Positions 11,746-48,504 of a DNA stretch of 64,000 bases are shown in pieces. This DNA is from a virus. Where the stretch lies: the IMG/VR virus record IMGVR_UViG_3300008108_000016, positions 93,808 through 157,807 of that record; one strand, written 5' to 3'. Position numbers and translations under genes: made by a program. Every line of letters begins with the position of its first letter. The stretch's first letter is position 1. Under the pieces are notes generated by a model that ran no database searches, had not been told where the DNA came from, and worked only from the letters and a program-made list of their open reading frames with translations.

Positions 11746-12033
11746 ATGGCGGTTACAGAAAGATTAAATTTTGATCAACCACAAAATGAGTTAGGTCAAA
11801 TTGCGGAACAACAAAGACAGAGACTTATACCAAAGAATGATTATAAACCAACTAATCAATATTCACAAACAAATAAAGATGCAATATCCGATGGGGATGA
11901 ATTAGGTAAAGGTACTGGAGGATTTTTGGATACAACTAATGGAGGATCTTCAATTGATATTCTTGAAAGAAAGAATGAAATAAAAATTAATGAATATCAA
12001 TCTAATAAACCGTATACAACTCCTTCGGTTTAA
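11746..12033 (+). CDS. Hypothetical phage protein
   Basis: Tightly packed operon ORF. Confidence 0.6.
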   Translation: MAVTERLNFDQPQNELGQIAEQQRQRLIPKNDYKPTNQYSQTNKDAISDGDELGKGTGGFLDTTNGGSSIDILERKNEIKINEYQSNKPYTTPSV

Positions 12034-12437
12034 TGAAACTTTACAACTCTCTGAAAAGTCTTATTCTTGAGATAGCATCAATAGATTCAATTGTTGATGC
12101 AATTAAGAAAAAACAGAAAGTTGTAATTTATTACAAAGGAGATGAACCAGGTGGAAATGGACTAAGAACTATTGAACCCGTTTGTTTTGGGTATAGTAAG
12201 GCAGGTAACCCTGTTTTACGAGCTTGGGATTTAGAAGGAGCTTCACATAGAGCATATTTAGGGAAGAAACCTTTACCAAGTTGGAGATTATTCAGGGTTG
12301 ATAAAATAGTTTCGTTTAGACCAACCGCAGAAAAGTTTGATACACCAAGACCTGGTTATAACCCTAACGGAGATAAAAGTATGACTAATGTAATTGTAAA
12401 CGCTGTATTTGGTGGTACTGAAGAAACTATAACATAA
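12033..12437 (+). CDS. Stand-alone WYL-domain protein
   Basis: VVIYY...RTIEPVCFG...LRAW...WRLFRVDKI WYL signature. Confidence 0.75.
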   Translation: MKLYNSLKSLILEIASIDSIVDAIKKKQKVVIYYKGDEPGGNGLRTIEPVCFGYSKAGNPVLRAWDLEGASHRAYLGKKPLPSWRLFRVDKIVSFRPTAEKFDTPRPGYNPNGDKSMTNVIVNAVFGGTEETIT

Positions 12438-12456: not shown

Positions 12457-13065
12457 ATGTCGGCAGATCAAGATTTAATTAACAAGTTGTTAATATCAAA
12501 AAAAATAATGGAAAGACACGATAGTATGGGTCGTGGAAACCATGCAAATGTCTCAATACCAAACACACCTGTGGTTGAGGACTATAAACCCGTAAGTGGT
12601 AATTACAATATACCTCAAGATTTATTATCTGAAGTGGAAGTACCAACACAAAAGAATTATAATACTTCAGTACCAACGGCAGATAGAATTGCTAGTTCAA
12701 AACTACCTGATGAGATTAAAAGGTTAATGATGGAACACCCAATACAACAACCAAATAACCCATTAACCGCAGGATCATCATTATCACCAGATTTAATTGA
12801 TAAAGCATCAAGACTAATGAATTCAAAAGCAAATGGGGAACCGATTGTAGAAAATGTTAGACCTAAACAACAACCAACTCAATCATCAATTTCTTTTAAC
12901 CCAAACCAAATTAAAGATATTGTAAGAGAAACAGTTGAGGATGTGTTAAGAGAAAATGGTCTAATGGTTGAATCCACAAAAAAATCAAATGAAGTTTTTA
13001 GATTCAAAGTGGGTCAACATATTTTTGAGGGTAAGATTACAAAAATTAAAAAAGTTTCAGAATAA
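12457..13065 (+). CDS. Hypothetical phage protein
   Basis: Long ORF ending before a terminator. Confidence 0.6.
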   Translation: MSADQDLINKLLISKKIMERHDSMGRGNHANVSIPNTPVVEDYKPVSGNYNIPQDLLSEVEVPTQKNYNTSVPTADRIASSKLPDEIKRLMMEHPIQQPNNPLTAGSSLSPDLIDKASRLMNSKANGEPIVENVRPKQQPTQSSISFNPNQIKDIVRETVEDVLRENGLMVESTKKSNEVFRFKVGQHIFEGKITKIKKVSE

Positions 13066-13087
13066 CTTAAGTTATTTAAATTCATAT

Positions 13088-13114
13088 CCCCATTCATAAA
13101 GAGTGGGGTTTTTT
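13088..13114 (+). terminator. Intrinsic terminator
   Basis: CCCCATTC-ATAAA-GAGTGGGG followed by a T-tract. Confidence 0.75.
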
Positions 13115-13148
13115 GTTTTTTTTATTTTACCTTTTGATACAACAGAAC

Positions 13149-13156
13149 TATTTATA
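13149..13156 (+). promoter_or_regulatory. Putative late promoter TATTTATA (representative of about 18 copies)
   Basis: Same motif on the sense strand upstream of many genes, e.g. 35916, 37416 (+); 2117, 39965, 42570, 46702, 47740, 49231, 53099, 57184, 59373 (-). Confidence 0.65.
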
Positions 13157-13172
13157 ATAAAAACAACATATT

Positions 13173-14075
13173 ATGGCAAAAAAAATTGATTTAAATGAAA
13201 CGTTAATTATTAAAGAATATTTGGGAGGTAAAAGTTCATTAATATTGTCAAAAGAATTTGGGGTGTCTAAACCCACTATTTTATCAGTACTAAAAAAACA
13301 TAATGTAACTAGAAAAAGAAATAGATGTGATTCATTAAAAATAATTAAAAATGATAATAAATATGTTATTTTAAGAAAATGCCCTCAATGTGGTTCAGAC
13401 GTTAAGACAACATCAAAAGATAGGATAATTGCCTGTAGAAATTATTTTAATTTGAGGAATTCATTATGTAAAAATTGTAGTATTATAAATCAAAAAGGAA
13501 ATGGGAATCCATTTTACGGTAAAAAACACACTGGGGAGTCCAAACAAAAAATATCAAATAGTAGAAAAGGAAAAGCAACCGGTAAAGAAAATTCTATGGC
13601 AAACCCAAAACATAGGGATAAGGCTAGAAAAAATTTAAAAAAGAAATGGGATGAGGGTAATATGGAGCATGCCAGAAAAATAATGTCAGAAAAGATGAAA
13701 GAAACAAGAAGATTAGGTAAAATAAAATCTGTGATAAGATCTAAAGCTGAATATGAAATAATAAAAAAAATAAAAGAAATAGGATATAAAGTTAAATCAT
13801 CATTTAGAGTTGACACTAAAATATGTGATATATTTATCCCTAAGTTAAATTTAATTATTGAGTATAATGGAGACTATTGGCATTGCAACCCAAAAAAATA
13901 TCCATCGGATTATTTTCATTCCGTTAAAAATATGACAGCAAAAGAATTATGGGATTATGATAAAAACAAGATTGACTTAGTAAGGAATAAAGGTTATAAT
14001 TTAGAAGTAATTTGGGAATCTGAATATAAGAAAAACCAAAACATAATAAATAAACTAATTAAAAAATATGAGTAA
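13173..14075 (+). mobile_element. Free-standing homing endonuclease (HTH + Zn ribbon + NUMOD3 + DUF559/Vsr-like PD-(D/E)xK nuclease)
   Basis: CPQC..CKNC; NPFYGKKHTGESKQKIS (NUMOD3); DIFIPKLNLIIEYNGDYWH...GYNLEVIWE. Confidence 0.8.
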
Positions 14076-15315
14076 AGAAAGCCCCATGAATGGTCGTGAG
14101 AGAATTAGAGTATTAGTTCTCCCAAGTGACCAATCTGGGGTTGGCTGAGGTAAATTCCGTTCAGTTGACCCCCATGTAATGTTACAAAACAAATATCCTG
14201 ATGAATTTCACGTTGATATTGATTACGAACCAAAAATAAATGATCAGAACTATTGGAAACAATATCAAATTGTTCATTTCCACAGAAATATCGGTCAAAA
14301 TTATGAAGATTGCCCTGCACTTATTGAATGGTTAAAAAGTGTTGGTATCGTTGTTATTGCGGATGTTGACGATTATTGGTTACCAACAAAGGAACATCCT
14401 ATTCATCAGTTAATTATTAACAATAAAATTCACGAGAAGATTATTGCAAATCTTAAAGTATCATCATACGTTACAACAACAACAGATATTTTTGCGAATG
14501 AAATTAGAAAGTTCAATAAAAATGTTTATGTTTTACCAAACGCAATTGATCCAAGAGAAGAACAATTTAATCAACCAACTTTACCTTCCGAAAAAATCAG
14601 AGTAGGTTGGCTTGGTGGATCCTCACATTTACACGATTTGAAGTTATTGGATGGTATGGTAAATAAATTAAAACCTCAACAGGATAAATTACAATTTTAT
14701 CTTTGTGGTTTTGATACAAGAGGAACCGTAACAGAAATTAATAAAAATACGGGGGAAGAAGTAAGAAGACCAATTAAACCCGAAGAAACGGTTTGGGTTA
14801 AATATGAATCAATTTTTACTGACAACTATAAAATAATTTCACCAAATTATAAATTATTTTTGGATAGGTTTAATGATGAAGAGTTTCTTGGGTGGGAAAA
14901 TGAAAACTACGTAAGAGTATGGACAAAACCTGCAACATCATACGCAAAGAATTATTCAAGGTTTGATATATCATTATCACCAATTGTTGATCACGTTTTT
15001 AACAGGATGAAATCACAACTTAAAGTTATTGAGGCGGGATTCTATAAAAAAGCCTTAATCGCATCAAACGTTGGGCCTTATACCATAGATCTTAAACATT
15101 CGGTAAGTAATGGTAAATTTGTTGATGGTAATGCCCTATTGGTTGACAAACATAGAAACCATTCAGATTGGGTTAAAAACGTTAAATTGTTGGTAAACAA
15201 CCCAAACATGGTTAAAGATATGGGTGAAAGATTATATGAAACCGTAAAAGACACATATGATCTTAATATTGTTACAAAAAATAGAAGTGAATTTTACAAA
15301 TCTTTAATTAAATAA
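14068..15315 (+). CDS. GT-B (GT4-like) glycosyltransferase interrupted by in-frame TGA at 14146-14148
   Basis: ATG 14068 is in frame with ORF 14179: MSKESPMNGRERIRVLVLPSDQSGVG*GKFRSVDPHVMLQ...; DVDDYW, VGWLGGSSH, FNRMKSQLKVIEAG motifs. Confidence 0.75.
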
Positions 15316-15317
15316 TT

Positions 15318-16019
15318 ATGATTAATATACCAATTACCAAAATTTTATTCCTTGACATTGAAACCGTTGGTGGATGCCCTGATTATGAATCCTGTGAGAA
15401 ATTCAATCCAGATCTTGCCAATCAATTTAACAAATATTTTGATTGGTTTCAAAAAAGATTTCCCGAAGATGAAAGTCTGTTTAGAGAGGAAGTGTTTAAG
15501 AAACGAGCAGCTCTTGTTCCTGAATTTGCAAAAATTATCTGCGTATCAATGGCGTTTGTAATGGACAACGGAGAAGTAAAAAAACAGACATTTTCTGGTG
15601 ATGATGAAAAAGAATTATTGATTCAAGTTAGAAATCTTCTTGATAGATGTAGTAAACTTGATTTCTATCTTTGTGGTCATAATCTAAAAAACTTTGACAT
15701 TCCGATGCTTGCAAAACGTATGATCATAAATGGAATTATGCCATCAAAACTTTTACCATCATATGATACAAAGCCTTGGGAGGTAAAAGCAATTGACACA
15801 AAAGAAATTTGGCAATACGGAGCGTATACATCAATTGGTTCTTTGGATCTTGTTTGTTCAACAATGGGAATACCAACACCAAAAGATGGGGAAATTACTG
15901 GTGATAAAGTTCACGATGCTTATTGGATAGAACAAAAATTAAACTCAATATCTGAATATTGTGAAAAGGATGTTGAAGTTCTTATTGAATTTATAAAAAA
16001 ACTTAAAAACTTGGGATAA
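15318..16019 (+). CDS. PolB-like 3'-5' exonuclease (DEDDy)
   Basis: FLDIET, GHNLKNFDIP, YCEKDV. Confidence 0.85.
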   Translation: MINIPITKILFLDIETVGGCPDYESCEKFNPDLANQFNKYFDWFQKRFPEDESLFREEVFKKRAALVPEFAKIICVSMAFVMDNGEVKKQTFSGDDEKELLIQVRNLLDRCSKLDFYLCGHNLKNFDIPMLAKRMIINGIMPSKLLPSYDTKPWEVKAIDTKEIWQYGAYTSIGSLDLVCSTMGIPTPKDGEITGDKVHDAYWIEQKLNSISEYCEKDVEVLIEFIKKLKNLG

Positions 16020-16020
16020 T

Positions 16021-16608
16021 ATGACTAAAGAAAATGATGATTTTTTTGAACAAATAAAAGATCTTGAAGAAACTTTTGATGGTGATGAACCTGACTATAA
16101 TGCTGTTATGGAACTATTTGGAATCGACATAAATGAAATTGATAGAGAAATGAAATCGTATAACACAAAAGTTGAGGTTAATTATACCACAAAACATGAA
16201 AATTCTGTAGACCCTGTATACGCTTACCCAACAGATTCAGGATTTGACTTGCATTCAACAGAGGAAATAGATATTGATCCATTTGGTAGAACCTTGGTTC
16301 CAACAGGATTGTTTATTGACATTCCCGAACATTATGAAATTCAAGTTAGATCAAAAAGCGGTTTAGCATTAAAACAAGGTTTGATGGTATTAAATTCACC
16401 AGGTACGGTAGATCAAGGGTATACAGGTGAAATAAAAGTAATTATTTTTAATACGAATAATCACAAAGTTAAAATTGATAAAGGTCAAAAAATTGCTCAG
16501 GCGGTTTTTTCTCCTGTTGTTTGTGGTAAGTGGATCAATTTTAATAAAGTAATTAACATTAACGATAAAGACAGATCTGATAAAGGATTTGGTAGTACAG
16601 GGATATGA
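16021..16608 (+). CDS. dut: Trimeric dUTPase with acidic N-terminal extension
   Basis: SGFDL, RSKSGLA, GTVDQGYTGEI, KIAQ, R..KGFGSTG motifs. Confidence 0.95.
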   Translation: MTKENDDFFEQIKDLEETFDGDEPDYNAVMELFGIDINEIDREMKSYNTKVEVNYTTKHENSVDPVYAYPTDSGFDLHSTEEIDIDPFGRTLVPTGLFIDIPEHYEIQVRSKSGLALKQGLMVLNSPGTVDQGYTGEIKVIIFNTNNHKVKIDKGQKIAQAVFSPVVCGKWINFNKVININDKDRSDKGFGSTGI

Positions 16609-18029
16609 TAACAATAGGATACTCAACAAGAAAACATAACCAAGAATACATTGATTATCTTCAAAAAACTTCAATGTACAAAGAAGTGGAAATTATAGAA
16701 AAAATTAATAATGGTGAAAAATCATTGTCTCAAGTTTATAATGAAATTTTATCTGAATCAAAATACGATATAGTTGTTTTATGTCATGACGACTTAGAAT
16801 TTGACACAAAAAATTGGGCAGATAAAATACTTAAACATTTTAATAAAAATCCTGAATATGGTATTTTAGGTTTAGCTGGAACAAAATATTTGGATAATAA
16901 TGGAAAATGGTGGGAAGTTCAGAATACCATGTATGGTATTGTTAATCACAAACATGAAGGTAAAAAATGGACAAGTAATTACTCAAAAGATTTAGGTAAT
17001 AAAATTGAGGACGTAATAATTGTTGATGGATTATTTATCGCAATAAATAAGAAAAAGATTAAACACAATTTTGATGAATCGTTTAATGGATTTCATTTTT
17101 ATGACTTAGGGTTTTGTTTGCCTAATTATTTAGATGATGTTAAAATTGGAGTAATGTTTGATATAAGGGTTACTCATCTTTCCATAGGACAAACTAACCA
17201 ACAATGGGAAGATAATAGAATTCAGTTCGCAATTAAATATAAAGATAAATTACCTATAGACATTAATAATAAAGAATTATCCGAAACTTTCATTTTTGTT
17301 CACGATCAAGATATAGTTCTTGAATTTGAATCGTCCAATAAACTATCTAATTTATATAAATATAAATACGTCTTTTTAGGTAATAGACCTATTGATAAGA
17401 TAGGGTATTTATCTAATTTAATAATTGCAAGAAATTATGAAGACAATATAGAACAATATCCTTTATTTACTTCCTATACTGGTTGGTATTGTCTTTGGAA
17501 AAATAATTTAATTAATACTAAATACATTAATCTTTTTGAGTACGATACCATCTTAAATAAGAATATTGATCAATTTCATACAAAAATTTATGAGAATGAC
17601 GTTGAAATGGTTGGATACGTTCCGTTTCCTGTAAGAAGTTATGAATTTATTTTAAACCCTTCTTGGAATGAAAATGTTATACCGGCAATTAAAGAAATAC
17701 ATAAATTTGATTTAATCTCACACTATAACAAAATTGTACAAAATTCACCAGATTCAGTGTGGTCTTCTACATCAAATACAACATTTAGAAAAGATATTTT
17801 TGATGATTTTATGAAATGGTTTTCTCCTGTTGCCGATAGAATTAAAGATACAAAAACTTGTGGTCACGCGCATGAAAGATCCATAACCTACTATTCTTAC
17901 CATAAGAATAGAAAATTTATGATTACAAAAGGACTACTGCAACACTTACAATTAGACTCACATAAAACTCAAGGTCATTTTGTTGACTTACAAAGTAATT
18001 ACGATAAATTATTAAAAAATAAACTATAA
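16605..18029 (+). CDS. Two-domain GT-A glycosyltransferase
   Basis: VLCHDDL, VDGLFIA, FHFYD N-terminal GT2-like domain plus second domain with FEYD / HAHERS. Confidence 0.7.
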   Translation: MITIGYSTRKHNQEYIDYLQKTSMYKEVEIIEKINNGEKSLSQVYNEILSESKYDIVVLCHDDLEFDTKNWADKILKHFNKNPEYGILGLAGTKYLDNNGKWWEVQNTMYGIVNHKHEGKKWTSNYSKDLGNKIEDVIIVDGLFIAINKKKIKHNFDESFNGFHFYDLGFCLPNYLDDVKIGVMFDIRVTHLSIGQTNQQWEDNRIQFAIKYKDKLPIDINNKELSETFIFVHDQDIVLEFESSNKLSNLYKYKYVFLGNRPIDKIGYLSNLIIARNYEDNIEQYPLFTSYTGWYCLWKNNLINTKYINLFEYDTILNKNIDQFHTKIYENDVEMVGYVPFPVRSYEFILNPSWNENVIPAIKEIHKFDLISHYNKIVQNSPDSVWSSTSNTTFRKDIFDDFMKWFSPVADRIKDTKTCGHAHERSITYYSYHKNRKFMITKGLLQHLQLDSHKTQGHFVDLQSNYDKLLKNKL

Positions 18030-18685
18030 TGAATTATTTAAGTTTTAGTTTATGGGGTGACAATCTTCTTTATAATATAGGAGCCATAAGAAATTCAGAA
18101 CTGATAAAAACCATATACCCCGGATGGAAAATGATCGTTTATTATGATAACACCGTACCATCAGAAACAATTAAAGAATTGGAAAAAAATGATGTTATAT
18201 GTGTTGATAGTTCGGGAGTACCTTATGGGTGTTTTTGGCGTTTTTTCGCTTCTGACATAGAAGATGCCGAATATGTATGTTTTAGAGATTGCGACTCAAG
18301 AATATCTGAAAGAGAATTTTTAGCTGTGCAAGAATGGATGAATAGTAAAAAACTAATACACGTAATGAGAGATCATCCCGCACATGGTGTCCCTTATGGT
18401 GCAAGTGGTTTAGGTATTTTAGCGGGTATGTGGGGTATTAAAGGTAAAATAATGGAAATGAGAAAAACTATAGAATCTTTTTTAAAGGATAAAATAAATT
18501 ATTACGGCATTGATCAAAATTTTTTACAACACATATATAAATTTTTTAAGGATAATAAATTCACACATGATGAATTTTTTGAGAAAAAACCATTTCCAAT
18601 AGGAAGAGTTAATGGTAGATTTGTTGGTGAACGAATTAGTATAAACGAAACCCCTGTAACGGAAGACTACAAAATATTATTATGA
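18029..18685 (+). CDS. Putative GT-A-like glycan-modifying protein
   Basis: SFSLWG, FWRF, FRDCDSR, MRDHPAH, ILAGMWG, DQNFL conserved-type motifs. Confidence 0.55.
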   Translation: MNYLSFSLWGDNLLYNIGAIRNSELIKTIYPGWKMIVYYDNTVPSETIKELEKNDVICVDSSGVPYGCFWRFFASDIEDAEYVCFRDCDSRISEREFLAVQEWMNSKKLIHVMRDHPAHGVPYGASGLGILAGMWGIKGKIMEMRKTIESFLKDKINYYGIDQNFLQHIYKFFKDNKFTHDEFFEKKPFPIGRVNGRFVGERISINETPVTEDYKILL

Positions 18686-19401
18686 AAATAGATTACATAA
18701 TTGTTAGTACCAATGATAATAATTTGTACAAAGATTTTTGGCCCGTAGTAAAAAAATTATGGTATGAATTGATTGGGATAAAACCTATTTTGGTTGAGAT
18801 ATGTGATACAAATGAAATAGTTGATTATGGTGATCATATCATACACAAAATAAAAAAAATAGAAGACATAGATACAGGATTTCAATCACAAATAGCAAGA
18901 ATGTACGTAACTAAGTTTTATCAAAATAGTGTCTGTTTGACATCAGATATTGATATGTTACCATTATGTAAGAATTATTTTGTTAATGATATAGAAGACA
19001 TAGATAATGATAATTTAGTTATTTTTAGTTCTGATGCGTATCAAGGTGTTGTTAGATACCCAATATGTTACAACGCATCAAAAGGAAAGGTATTCAATGA
19101 CATTATGAAATTTGAAGACACTTTTGAGGAGTACTGTATAAAATTAAATGACATGGGGTTAGGTTGGGATACGGATGAGTTATATTTTGGAAAAATGGTT
19201 AACCTATATGAAAATCAATCAATAATTACTAAATTAAATCGTGGTTGGGAGTACGGAAGAGCAAAAAAAAGAATAGATAGAGTTTATTGGACATATGATG
19301 AAAACGAATTAAAATCTCAAAATTATGTAGATTCTCACTCTTTACGCCCATATTCAAGATACAAAAATGAAATAGATAAATTAATAAACTTTTTAATATG
19401 A
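18682..19401 (+). CDS. Putative glycosyltransferase
   Basis: TSDIDMLP DxD motif, W.TDE; glycan cluster context. Confidence 0.5.
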   Translation: MKIDYIIVSTNDNNLYKDFWPVVKKLWYELIGIKPILVEICDTNEIVDYGDHIIHKIKKIEDIDTGFQSQIARMYVTKFYQNSVCLTSDIDMLPLCKNYFVNDIEDIDNDNLVIFSSDAYQGVVRYPICYNASKGKVFNDIMKFEDTFEEYCIKLNDMGLGWDTDELYFGKMVNLYENQSIITKLNRGWEYGRAKKRIDRVYWTYDENELKSQNYVDSHSLRPYSRYKNEIDKLINFLI

Positions 19402-20033
19402 AAATATTAATTTTAGTTCTTTCATATGACGATTCAGGAATATATACTGAATTTTATAAAACACAAAAACAAACGTGGGATAGTTTACCTGTTGAAGGTG
19501 TAGACACATATTACTATTTTGGTAATTCAGACGAGGAAAAAATAGACGGGAATAATATTTTTTTAGGGGTGAGGGAATCACTAATGAATTGTGCTCATAA
19601 AACAATAGACGCATTTAATTTAGTGAAGGATTTTGATTTTGACTTTATATTTAGAACAAATTCAAGCTCTTATGTTGACAAAAAACTTTTAAAAAAATAC
19701 GTAGAAAATAAATCAAATCAGAATTTTTATTCAGGTATCATTGGGAATCACATGGGCATTCCTTTTTGCTCAGGATCTGGTTATTTTTTATCTAAGGACT
19801 TAGTTAAACTTATTATAAATAATAAGTCAGAAATAAACCATAATCTTATAGACGACGTTGCTTTTGGGAATTTTTTAAAAAATCAAAATATAGAATTTAA
19901 ACAATCTGAAAGGTTTGATGTAATAAGTAATGATCACATACCTATGGATTATTTTCATTATAGATTAAAAACATCTCATAGACAAAATGATATAAAAAAT
20001 ATGGAATTAATTTTTTTAAACAAATGCAAATAA
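19398..20033 (+). CDS. GT31-like galactosyltransferase
   Basis: FIFRTNSSSYV, FCSGSGYFLSKD, DDVAFG. Confidence 0.65.
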   Translation: MKILILVLSYDDSGIYTEFYKTQKQTWDSLPVEGVDTYYYFGNSDEEKIDGNNIFLGVRESLMNCAHKTIDAFNLVKDFDFDFIFRTNSSSYVDKKLLKKYVENKSNQNFYSGIIGNHMGIPFCSGSGYFLSKDLVKLIINNKSEINHNLIDDVAFGNFLKNQNIEFKQSERFDVISNDHIPMDYFHYRLKTSHRQNDIKNMELIFLNKCK

Positions 20034-20788
20034 TTACAGGAAATAAATTTAAAAAAATATGTGACTATATCTTGGATGAAAAAGGATTCAATAAAACAGA
20101 AGTCACTAATGAAATACCTATTTATTTTGTAAAAACTGATTACTTACATTCATTTTTTACCACATATAAGCCCAACCATAAATATAAAATTATTACACAT
20201 AATAGTGACTATCCTATTGATATAAAATTTATGAATATATTAGAGGATGTAAATTTAGTGTACTGGTTCGGTCAAAATATTAATTTTGAACACAAAAAAT
20301 TAAAATCTATACCAATAGGGATTGCAAATGAAATGTGGGATCACGGTAATGAAGAGGTTTTATTAAAAATTATTAATCAAGATAATAAAAAAAGTAAAAT
20401 AATTCATTGCTCGTTTGATATAAACACAAATAGATACGAAAGAACCCAATGTGTTAACTCAATGAATAGGAACAATTTAGTTATGAACCAAAGGGAAAAG
20501 TTTGAAGATTATTTAACATCTTTAAGTAATAGTTTTTTTACTTTAAGTCCTAATGGTAATGGTGTTGATTGTCATAAACTATGGGAATCATTATATTTAA
20601 AAACTGTTCCTGTGGTTACTAAAAGTATTAATATTGATTTTTATAGACATTTACCTATCTATGTTATAGACTCATGGAGTCATTTCAATATTAATGATTT
20701 AACAGAAGATTTGTATTATGATATAATAAAAAAACATAATATAGAAAAAATAAGTTTAGATTATTTTCTAAATAAAATAATTAAATAA
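20024..20788 (+). CDS. Exostosin (GT47)-like protein
   Basis: FTLSPNGNGVDCHKLWESLYLKTVPVV. Confidence 0.65.
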   Translation: MQIITGNKFKKICDYILDEKGFNKTEVTNEIPIYFVKTDYLHSFFTTYKPNHKYKIITHNSDYPIDIKFMNILEDVNLVYWFGQNINFEHKKLKSIPIGIANEMWDHGNEEVLLKIINQDNKKSKIIHCSFDINTNRYERTQCVNSMNRNNLVMNQREKFEDYLTSLSNSFFTLSPNGNGVDCHKLWESLYLKTVPVVTKSINIDFYRHLPIYVIDSWSHFNINDLTEDLYYDIIKKHNIEKISLDYFLNKIIK

Positions 20789-20795
20789 AATATAA

Positions 20796-21377
20796 ATGGA
20801 AAAAATAAAGTTAATCTATGAAAATGAGTGTGTAATACCTTCTGATATTAATGAACATTTACCCACCTTACTAAAATACGCCAATGAATGCGATCACATA
20901 ACAGAAATGGGTGTTAGATGGGTTTCATCTACTTGGCCACTATTACTGTCTAACCCCAAAAAAATGATTAGTTATGATATAGTAAAACACCCTAAAATTG
21001 ATGAGGTAATTGAGTTATCAAATGAATATAATTTAAATTATCAATTTATTGAGGATGACGTTCTAAAAACTAATATAGAAGAAACTGATTTACTTTTTAT
21101 AGATACCTTACATACATATAACCAATTAATTTGTGAATTAGAATTACACTCTGACAAATCTAAAAAATATATAATTTTACACGATACTACGTCATTTGGT
21201 AGTGTTGACGAGGTAATATATAACCATGCTAGTTCAGATATTAAAAATTTAGAAACTAAAAAACAAGGACTGTGGACTGCAGTAATTGATTTTTTAGAGT
21301 CGGATAAAGGTAAAAATTGGCAGATTCACGAAAGACATATGAATAACAATGGATTAACAATTCTTAAAAGAAAATGA
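20796..21377 (+). CDS. Class I SAM-dependent methyltransferase (Methyltransf_24-like)
   Basis: EMGVR, LLFIDTLHTY, IILHD. Confidence 0.75.
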   Translation: MEKIKLIYENECVIPSDINEHLPTLLKYANECDHITEMGVRWVSSTWPLLLSNPKKMISYDIVKHPKIDEVIELSNEYNLNYQFIEDDVLKTNIEETDLLFIDTLHTYNQLICELELHSDKSKKYIILHDTTSFGSVDEVIYNHASSDIKNLETKKQGLWTAVIDFLESDKGKNWQIHERHMNNNGLTILKRK

Positions 21378-48315: not shown

Positions 48316-48504
48316 ATGCTTATTGTTAAAATAAAGAAGACAGGAGACATTGAGAGAGCTCTTAAAGAACTGAAGAGTAAAGTAATTAAAACAAGACAAA
48401 ATTCCTTCCTCAACGAGAGAAAGGAATTTAAGAAAAAATCAGTTTTAAACAGAGAAAATAAGAATAGAGCTATATATCGCCAAAAGATGAAATTAAACGA
48501 TTAA
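48316..48504 (+). CDS. rpsU: Ribosomal protein bS21
   Basis: MLIV.I....DIERALK..K.K..KT.....L.ERKEF.K.SV..R.....AIY matches Bacteroidota bS21, including Tyr54. Confidence 0.85.
   Translation: MLIVKIKKTGDIERALKELKSKVIKTRQNSFLNERKEFKKKSVLNRENKNRAIYRQKMKLND

Follow-up and report, generated by a model that had tools for sequence, protein, structure and literature searches.

The window, a 64,000-nt stretch of DNA, is part of a 158-kb virus record that is about half complete. It carries a glycosyltransferase (GT) gene interrupted by a TGA between two glycine codons and preceded by a free-standing endonuclease gene. The ORF caller places the glycosyltransferase start at ATG 14179; the initial annotation had extended it to ATG 14068, and this codon does open a frame leading to GGC-TGA-GGT, with the endonuclease ORF (13173-14075) overlapping the ATG by 8 nt and ending 70 nt before the TGA, the distance originally given. 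From the GGT on, 388 open codons run up to TAA 15315, and a hop between the two glycine codons would yield a product of 413 aa (ORF1 + ORF2). The features, in window positions, are as follows:

13088-13116, + strand: terminator-like hairpin of the upstream gene; the 5' boundary of the cassette lies just past it in near-identical pairs with and without the gap
13149-13155, + strand: TATTTAT motif before the endonuclease start, a putative candidate late promoter element
13173-14075, + strand: free-standing endonuclease, 300 aa, with HTH, C4 zinc finger, NUMOD3 and a C-terminal Vsr-like catalytic domain (E-Y-N-G-D-Y-W-H)
13972-14000, + strand: promoter-like TTGACT-17-TATAAT inside the endonuclease 3' end, 96 nt before the glycosyltransferase start
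14068-14097, + strand: cassette-encoded N-terminal extension of about 10 codons, found in gap carriers only and forming the 5' strand of the upstream stem
14068-14145, + strand: GT ORF1, 26 codons from ATG 14068 (first beta strand and Gly loop), its last codon being the proposed take-off codon
14080-14142, + strand: predicted upstream mRNA stem of 25 pairs (-29.3 kcal/mol, z -6.3), its base abutting the take-off codon
14137-14172, + strand: 12-bp hairpin of the initial annotation, contesting 14137-42 (a G-run) with the upstream stem; partly conserved
14143-14145, + strand: proposed take-off codon GGC (Gly); GGY in 71/71 gap carriers
14146-14148, + strand: stop codon TGA, proposed to stand in the A site; a stop in 70/71 gap carriers
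14149-14151, + strand: proposed landing codon GGT (Gly), the sole Gly-type triplet within 60 nt past take-off
14152-15315, + strand: GT ORF2, 387 codons, ending at TAA 15315; GT-B fold, GT4-like

The TGA codon terminates 25 of the 118 long ORFs in the genome and is therefore an ordinary stop in it, as initially noted, and Shine-Dalgarno sequences are nearly unused (2.5% of starts). A gene for ribosomal protein bS21 was found at 48316-48504, on the strand opposite to its neighbours (match E 6e-5, under the Pfam cut-off in the window and over it in three relatives). Freshwater bS21 phages have predicted hosts among the Bacteroidetes (PMC9723584); the bS21 gene and the near-absence of Shine-Dalgarno sequences fit this group, from which we infer a Bacteroidota host. 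No match to the family was obtained in a scan of genome contigs, so that no prophage-based host could be assigned, and among cultured phages only distant relatives (33% or less) were detected. Two genes upstream of the cassette, a stand-alone WYL-domain gene (12033-12437) was conserved in all relatives inspected. The glycosyltransferase is the first gene of a tightly packed run (14068-21377) with a 3'-5' exonuclease, a dUTPase and further glycosyltransferase-like genes; if translation is coupled in this run, the downstream genes could depend on the efficiency of the hop.

The gap in related glycosyltransferase genes

Relatives were collected as 64 loci by protein search, and more by DNA patterns, giving 195 contexts after removal of duplicates, 124 of them gap-less and 71 with the gap, the window included. 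The same break was present at 114 loci from independent assemblies, corresponding to the 71 distinct contexts, and therefore no sequencing error is involved; this check, for which mapping of reads had been proposed, thus rests on relatives. About 120 relatives read GVGKFRS, as had been predicted for those lacking the endonuclease, and two extra sense residues at the site were found in no relative. In this phage, a faulty assembly or a recent mutation by template switching within a quasi-palindrome could be suspected from the complementarity of the inserted CTGA to TCAG at 14161-64; we give it practically no weight, considering the number of independently assembled loci, the lack of such complementarity in most variants, and the extension, stem and endonuclease that accompany the gap.

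Gap length, defined as the move from the first to the second Gly codon, was 6 nt in 63 contexts, 11 nt in three, 12 nt in two, and 5, 13 and 44 nt in one each. Gaps of 5, 11 and 13 nt shift the frame and that of 12 nt keeps it, all of them at the same codon, and a Gly-to-Gly hop restores GVGK for every one of the lengths 5, 6, 11, 12, 13 and 44 nt. The gap starts with GGC or GGT in 71/71 cases and is followed by GGT, GGA or GGC, its second codon being TGA (40), TAA (29), TAG (1) or GCT (1, the 44-nt case); no sense codon was found inside the 63 gaps of 6 nt. When metagenomes were searched with a pattern leaving the middle codon free, a stop occupied it in 70 of 70 readable matches, and variable-gap patterns with the entire gap free returned Gly plus stop first in 39 of 40 matches. 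The landing Gly was demanded by the search patterns, so that its conservation is partly by construction, and it is also the parental codon. The search reached an upper limit of 44 nt, and between 14 and 44 nt a single gap was found: that of L099 (1309-1352), which reads Gly, Ala, stop, with a strong terminator-like hairpin, beside an endonuclease remnant and an intact ORF2. This case, known from a single 4.9-kb contig, breaks the Gly-plus-stop rule. Single-base shifts at the site were considered too, and all run into stops within 11 codons.

Judged from the sequences alone, what selection maintains is a stop, neither one specific codon nor the frame. Since the stop is kept while codon and frame are not, readthrough, selenocysteine or a changed code cannot explain the gap. 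Readthrough, in which the UGA would be decoded by a near-cognate, suppressor or selenocysteine tRNA to give a protein two residues longer, is favoured by the in-frame gap of the window, by the leakiness of UGA in bacteria, by the hairpin 3' of the UGA and by a Cys in this loop of one gap-less relative. We nevertheless hold it to be improbable, as TAA replaces TGA in 29 of the 71 carriers (and TAG in one), frame-changing gaps occur at the same site, and no 6-nt gap has acquired a sense codon, although this would be an easy fix if two extra residues were tolerated. In addition, loop length did not vary in the 124 gap-less genes, and no suppressor tRNA was found in four relatives. The specific forms of this idea (selenocysteine, a code with TGA as Gly, a suppressor tRNA) were rejected on the TAA and TAG variants, the frame-changing gaps, the lack of a suppressor tRNA in those four relatives and the normal use of TGA as a stop.

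The proposal that the two Gly codons are matched and read by the same tRNA-Gly(GCC) fitted 62 of the 71 pairs; the other nine go from GGY to GGA, where a wobble mismatch would be needed. GGC makes up 2% of the Gly codons in the window's genome, yet it is the take-off codon in 35 of the 71 carriers. The four relatives mentioned above encode one tRNA-Gly each, with anticodon UCC and as their sole Gly tRNA (L298:7858-7932, L299:1381-1455, L301:7312-7384, L302:10225-10301), which might serve the GGT-to-GGA hops.

The interrupted genes occur in single copy, remain intact and evolve under purifying selection. Each of the 53 complete ORF2s from gap carriers was full length, pairwise dN/dS was 0.065 in gap carriers and 0.053 in gap-less genes, remaining low where the endonuclease had decayed, and pN/pS was 0.24 for the 15 codons before the gap, within ORF1. 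A complete 309-kb genome with an 11-nt gap had no second glycosyltransferase copy. The structure model of a gap-less relative was that of a GT-B enzyme resembling GlgM, PimA and BshA, in which residues 5-10 form strand 1 and residues 16-32 form helix 1; ORF1, in which the initial annotation had seen a likely first GT-B strand, corresponds in the model to strand 1 and the start of helix 1. By these positions, a protein begun at Met14179 would be missing core strand 1 and half of helix 1. We thus regard as very improbable that the cassette inactivates the gene, or that translation restarts at Met14179 and yields an enzyme that is truncated or made of two chains. It is conceivable that glycosyltransferases of such islands are dispensable, and an ATG equivalent to Met14179 stands at +10 in 37 of the 71 carriers; the same count means that the restart codon is missing in about half of them, in line with the earlier remark that it is not conserved. 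Furthermore, none of the ORF2s was truncated, selection extends over both ORFs also after endonuclease decay, and the promoter-like site is retained in all endonuclease remnants.

The endonuclease and the unit that moves

The upstream enzyme had been labelled DUF559/NUMOD3. The NUMOD3 part was recovered by Pfam, together with a sub-threshold match to MTES_1575, and DUF559 was not; NUMOD3 was present in 32/32 endonucleases, and a PHROG homing endonuclease was matched with E 7e-14. The best fold match was the catalytic domain of I-Bth0305I (E 3.6e-3, TM by target 0.76), weak but concordant, and endonuclease activity is inferred. A second short match to its catalytic motif occurs elsewhere in the genome (G000:C1:65405-65506, E 2e-4).

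The expected association between insert and endonuclease was borne out. Among the 70 carriers with enough flank, the endonuclease accompanied the gap in 68 (49 intact, 16 remnants and 3 cut by the contig end) and was lost in two, and among 115 gap-less loci it was present in 10 and absent in 105 (p about 6e-5 on independent tree pairs). In 21 independent pairs, the endonuclease followed the gap about 15 times and never went in the opposite direction. The ten relatives with an endonuclease and no gap imply that persistence of the endonuclease does not need the gap. Six of them (L004, L040, L127, L134, L194, L195) have intact endonucleases upstream of a glycosyltransferase with no gap, extension or stem; these enzymes lack 20-50 residues after NUMOD3, deletions that affect the DNA-binding region, and Thr or Ala stands at position -8 beside five of the six and in only 2 of 105 cases elsewhere. 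This suggests another target and another escape, or second immunity, strategy.

On the glycosyltransferase tree, built from the sequence beyond codon 30, the gap state changes 31 times. In the near-identical pairs L275/L172, L244/L100 and L225/L203, the enzymes are 99-100% identical and the difference is confined to the cassette, with identity up to the upstream terminator and resuming 3 to 27 nt after the landing codon. The mobile unit therefore comprises the endonuclease, the extension, the recoded first 16-17 codons and the gap. Thus, of the initial proposal of a 6-nt insert, the gap itself stands, and the unit is larger: promoter and first 17-25 codons are replaced and an N-terminal extension (9-12 codons across carriers) is added. 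The cassette borders in the window were set by homology because its nearest partner is only 84% identical. No gap-less gene retained extension and stem. Of the replaced tracts, the shortest reaches as far as the landing codon; indirectly, in the absence of cleavage data, this places the cut at the Gly-Val-Gly-Lys motif or upstream of it. Protection against cleavage by the gap itself is likewise an inference.

In 52 of 69 carriers, a TTGAY-17-TATAAT site precedes the start by 96 nt, and the endonuclease deletions end at or before it in 16/16 remnants, although this retention is confounded by protein-level conservation of the same codons. The site appears to replace a similar one of the parental gene. 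In one gap carrier (L033:1049-2488), two unrelated genes (115 and 304 aa) occupy the place of the endonuclease, and the promoter-like site, extension, stem and gap are kept.

RNA structure around the gap

The upstream stem was predicted for all gap carriers and was absent from all gap-less genes, including those with an endonuclease, and it went with the gap in 21/21 independent pairs. Folding of the 75 nt before take-off gave a mean of -28.2 kcal/mol in carriers (weakest, -20.8) against -8.1 in gap-less genes (strongest, -16.6). Stem stability exceeded all 100 synonymous resamples in 70 of the 71 carriers, with a median z of -4.2 against dinucleotide shuffles. RNAalifold returned no consensus pairs on an ungapped 61-row alignment, because bulges shift the register of the stem between subfamilies; folded by register, each of four registers gave 18-24 pairs with 1-4 double-sided changes. 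At the stem base, where third positions are free, the partner follows (C-G, U-A and G-C at -4, six pair types at -7), in a cross-register table that was anchored on predicted partners and thus leans towards structure. These data show that selection acts on the upstream stem, and the conserved RNA signal, as far as sequence comparison tells, is the stem at 14080-14142. The extension also carries a conserved Arg at -16 (57/63) and Arg/Lys at -14.

The 12-bp hairpin described initially (14137-48 with 14161-72, three G-U pairs) does fold in prediction (-18.9 kcal/mol, z -4.6), but it is not the main signal, being complete in 27/63 of the 6-nt variants and without compensation. At equilibrium it is the favoured fold in the window and in 24 other carriers and loses in 46; the segment 14143-14200 alone folds no better than shuffles (z 0.13), and the 3' strand of the hairpin shows a weak excess (median p 0.03 on independent pairs, range 0.004-0.29). 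It would be at most auxiliary because, on a translating ribosome, the 3' half is unavailable while the 5' half is being decoded. An internal Shine-Dalgarno spring, as in RF2, was considered and set aside: GGGG or GGAG stands 8 nt before landing in 66 of the 71 carriers, and the other five have GGCG with a compensating 5' strand, keeping the stem without a Shine-Dalgarno sequence in a phage that does not use such sequences.

A strong helix ending exactly at the gap, GG at both gap ends and an independence of frame like that of splicing would also suit removal of the gap from the RNA before translation, through a micro-intron, trans-excision or a polymerase jump. No RNA reads were available to decide this directly. 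Neither an Rfam match nor a ribozyme core, nor room for one, was found in 12900-14600, group I intron ends (U...G) cannot be placed in any register, and such removal would need neither a stop in frame with ORF1 nor matched Gly codons. We rate it, if anything, a little lower than readthrough.

A proposed hop and its relation to known systems

The reading we prefer is a programmed short translational bypass from GGC to GGT over the TGA, to which we assign a probability of roughly 0.85; the hop is inferred and its efficiency is not known, there being no reads, ribosome profiling or peptide data. The bypass interpretation of the initial annotation is supported, and its main predictions held. The analysis weakened it on three points, namely the take-off hairpin, an exact match of the two codons and an invariable link between endonuclease and gap, and left its core claim standing. 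In the course of events that we propose, a homing-endonuclease cassette would have swapped the promoter and first codons of a conserved glycosyltransferase for its own version, which puts a stop-containing gap into the Gly-Val-Gly-Lys motif. The ribosome would start at ATG 14068 and pause when GGC fills the P site and UGA the A site. At that point the ribosome still covers the final 9-12 nt of the stem's 3' strand. The last 9-12 pairs, blocked there, may then zip up and push the ribosome forward, whereupon the peptidyl-tRNA-Gly would quit GGC, re-pair on GGU six bases on and let decoding resume at AAA, giving GVGKFRS. The calculated gain from closing the stem end is about 16-18 kcal/mol for 12 nt and 6 kcal/mol for the first 6 nt alone, and in all gaps of 5-13 nt the next Gly triplet after take-off is the landing codon; stop pause and stem pull together could favour a forward slide to that triplet. 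The 5-13 nt range matches, by inference, the reach of such a push.

Granted a hop, we infer that the upstream stem probably drives it. Pairing of the exiting mRNA in a 5' stem has been proposed as the driver in T4 gene 60 (10.1101/2024.12.09.627546), where the stem stops 9 nt before take-off, and upstream hairpins promote forward slips on 70S ribosomes, although in vitro such a hairpin raised +1 slips only without RF2 (PMC6321510). Basal stop-hopping is low-level (10.1101/2024.12.09.627546). We lean only slightly towards the wider proposition of an efficient natural stop-hop driven by the upstream stem alone, with no nascent-peptide or take-off-stem signal: a portable 80-nt element, independent of T4 gene 60, with which a homing endonuclease could interrupt an essential motif of its target, and which would function on Bacteroidota ribosomes whatever the frame of the 5-13-nt gap.

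In T4 gene 60, the 50-nt bypass comes with the MobA homing-endonuclease element (Manning and Atkins, 10.1101/2022.08.31.505936; Wills et al., 10.1101/2024.12.09.627546), and the two systems share a free-standing endonuclease overlapping an N-terminal extension, a cassette copy of the replaced host codons, the order Gly take-off, stop, Gly landing, repeated insertion at one site, a bypass that outlasts endonuclease decay, and a 5' stem upstream of take-off, analogous and not homologous. They differ in the host gene (an unsplit GT-B glycosyltransferase here, the split topoisomerase II large subunit in T4), the endonuclease (Vsr-like here, HNH there), the predicted host phylum, the gap (5-13 nt, 6 in the window, versus about 50) and the take-off codon (GGY versus GGA). 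The present family has no KKYK nascent-peptide motif and no conserved take-off tetraloop stem, and its 5' stem, by far the longer of the two, extends to the take-off codon. Gene 60 has a mini Shine-Dalgarno before landing, a position held here by GGGG/GGAG (66/71) or GGCG (5/71) in a genome where such sequences are rare. The glycosyltransferase cassette thus works like gene 60 bypassing and is not a member of the gene 60 family.

Synthetic stop-hops in E. coli, where 9 nt specify one residue (Atkins et al. 2016, PMC5009743), likewise have matched codons around a stop and an in-frame 6-nt hop; they are unstimulated and low-level, whereas the present case is natural, conserved and flanked by selected RNA structure. 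A natural in-frame stop-hop was not known to the 2016 review (PMC5009743). Short blocks are also skipped, between matched or loosely matched codons, in the candidate bypass of the Streptomyces phage Hau3 terminase and in the mitochondrial byps of Magnusiomyces (27-55 nt), which differ in that the A site holds a sense codon that is rare or unused and that an endonuclease cassette is lacking, the byps depending moreover on relaxed mitochondrial ribosomes; given the short-gap candidates of the Streptomyces phage terminase, short bypass as such is not unprecedented. Regarding the enzyme, Vsr-like (EDxHD) homing endonucleases include I-Bth0305I and the free-standing enzymes of fractured genes (Dassa et al., PMC2677866), with which it shares the catalytic fold, NUMOD-type DNA-binding modules and the overlap with the start of the downstream gene; unlike in those systems, there is no intron or intein here, and the target gene would be mended by recoding. 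A literature search, which did not cover subscription journals, found no paper on this family, nor one after the 2016 review on a natural in-frame stop-hop.

Programmed bypassing in phages has been established only for T4 gene 60 and its homologues, and stop-hopping has been shown only in synthetic constructs. For annotation, the family carries the warning that such genes are called truncated and that some apparent readthrough may be hopping. Its relatives make up a natural mutant series (six gap lengths, three stops, six codon pairs and five stem registers) suited to the question of whether pairing of the mRNA leaving the ribosome drives forward sliding. If this is a second, unrelated family, endonuclease-plus-bypass cassettes have arisen more than once and join introns and inteins as a third means of interrupting a gene non-lethally.
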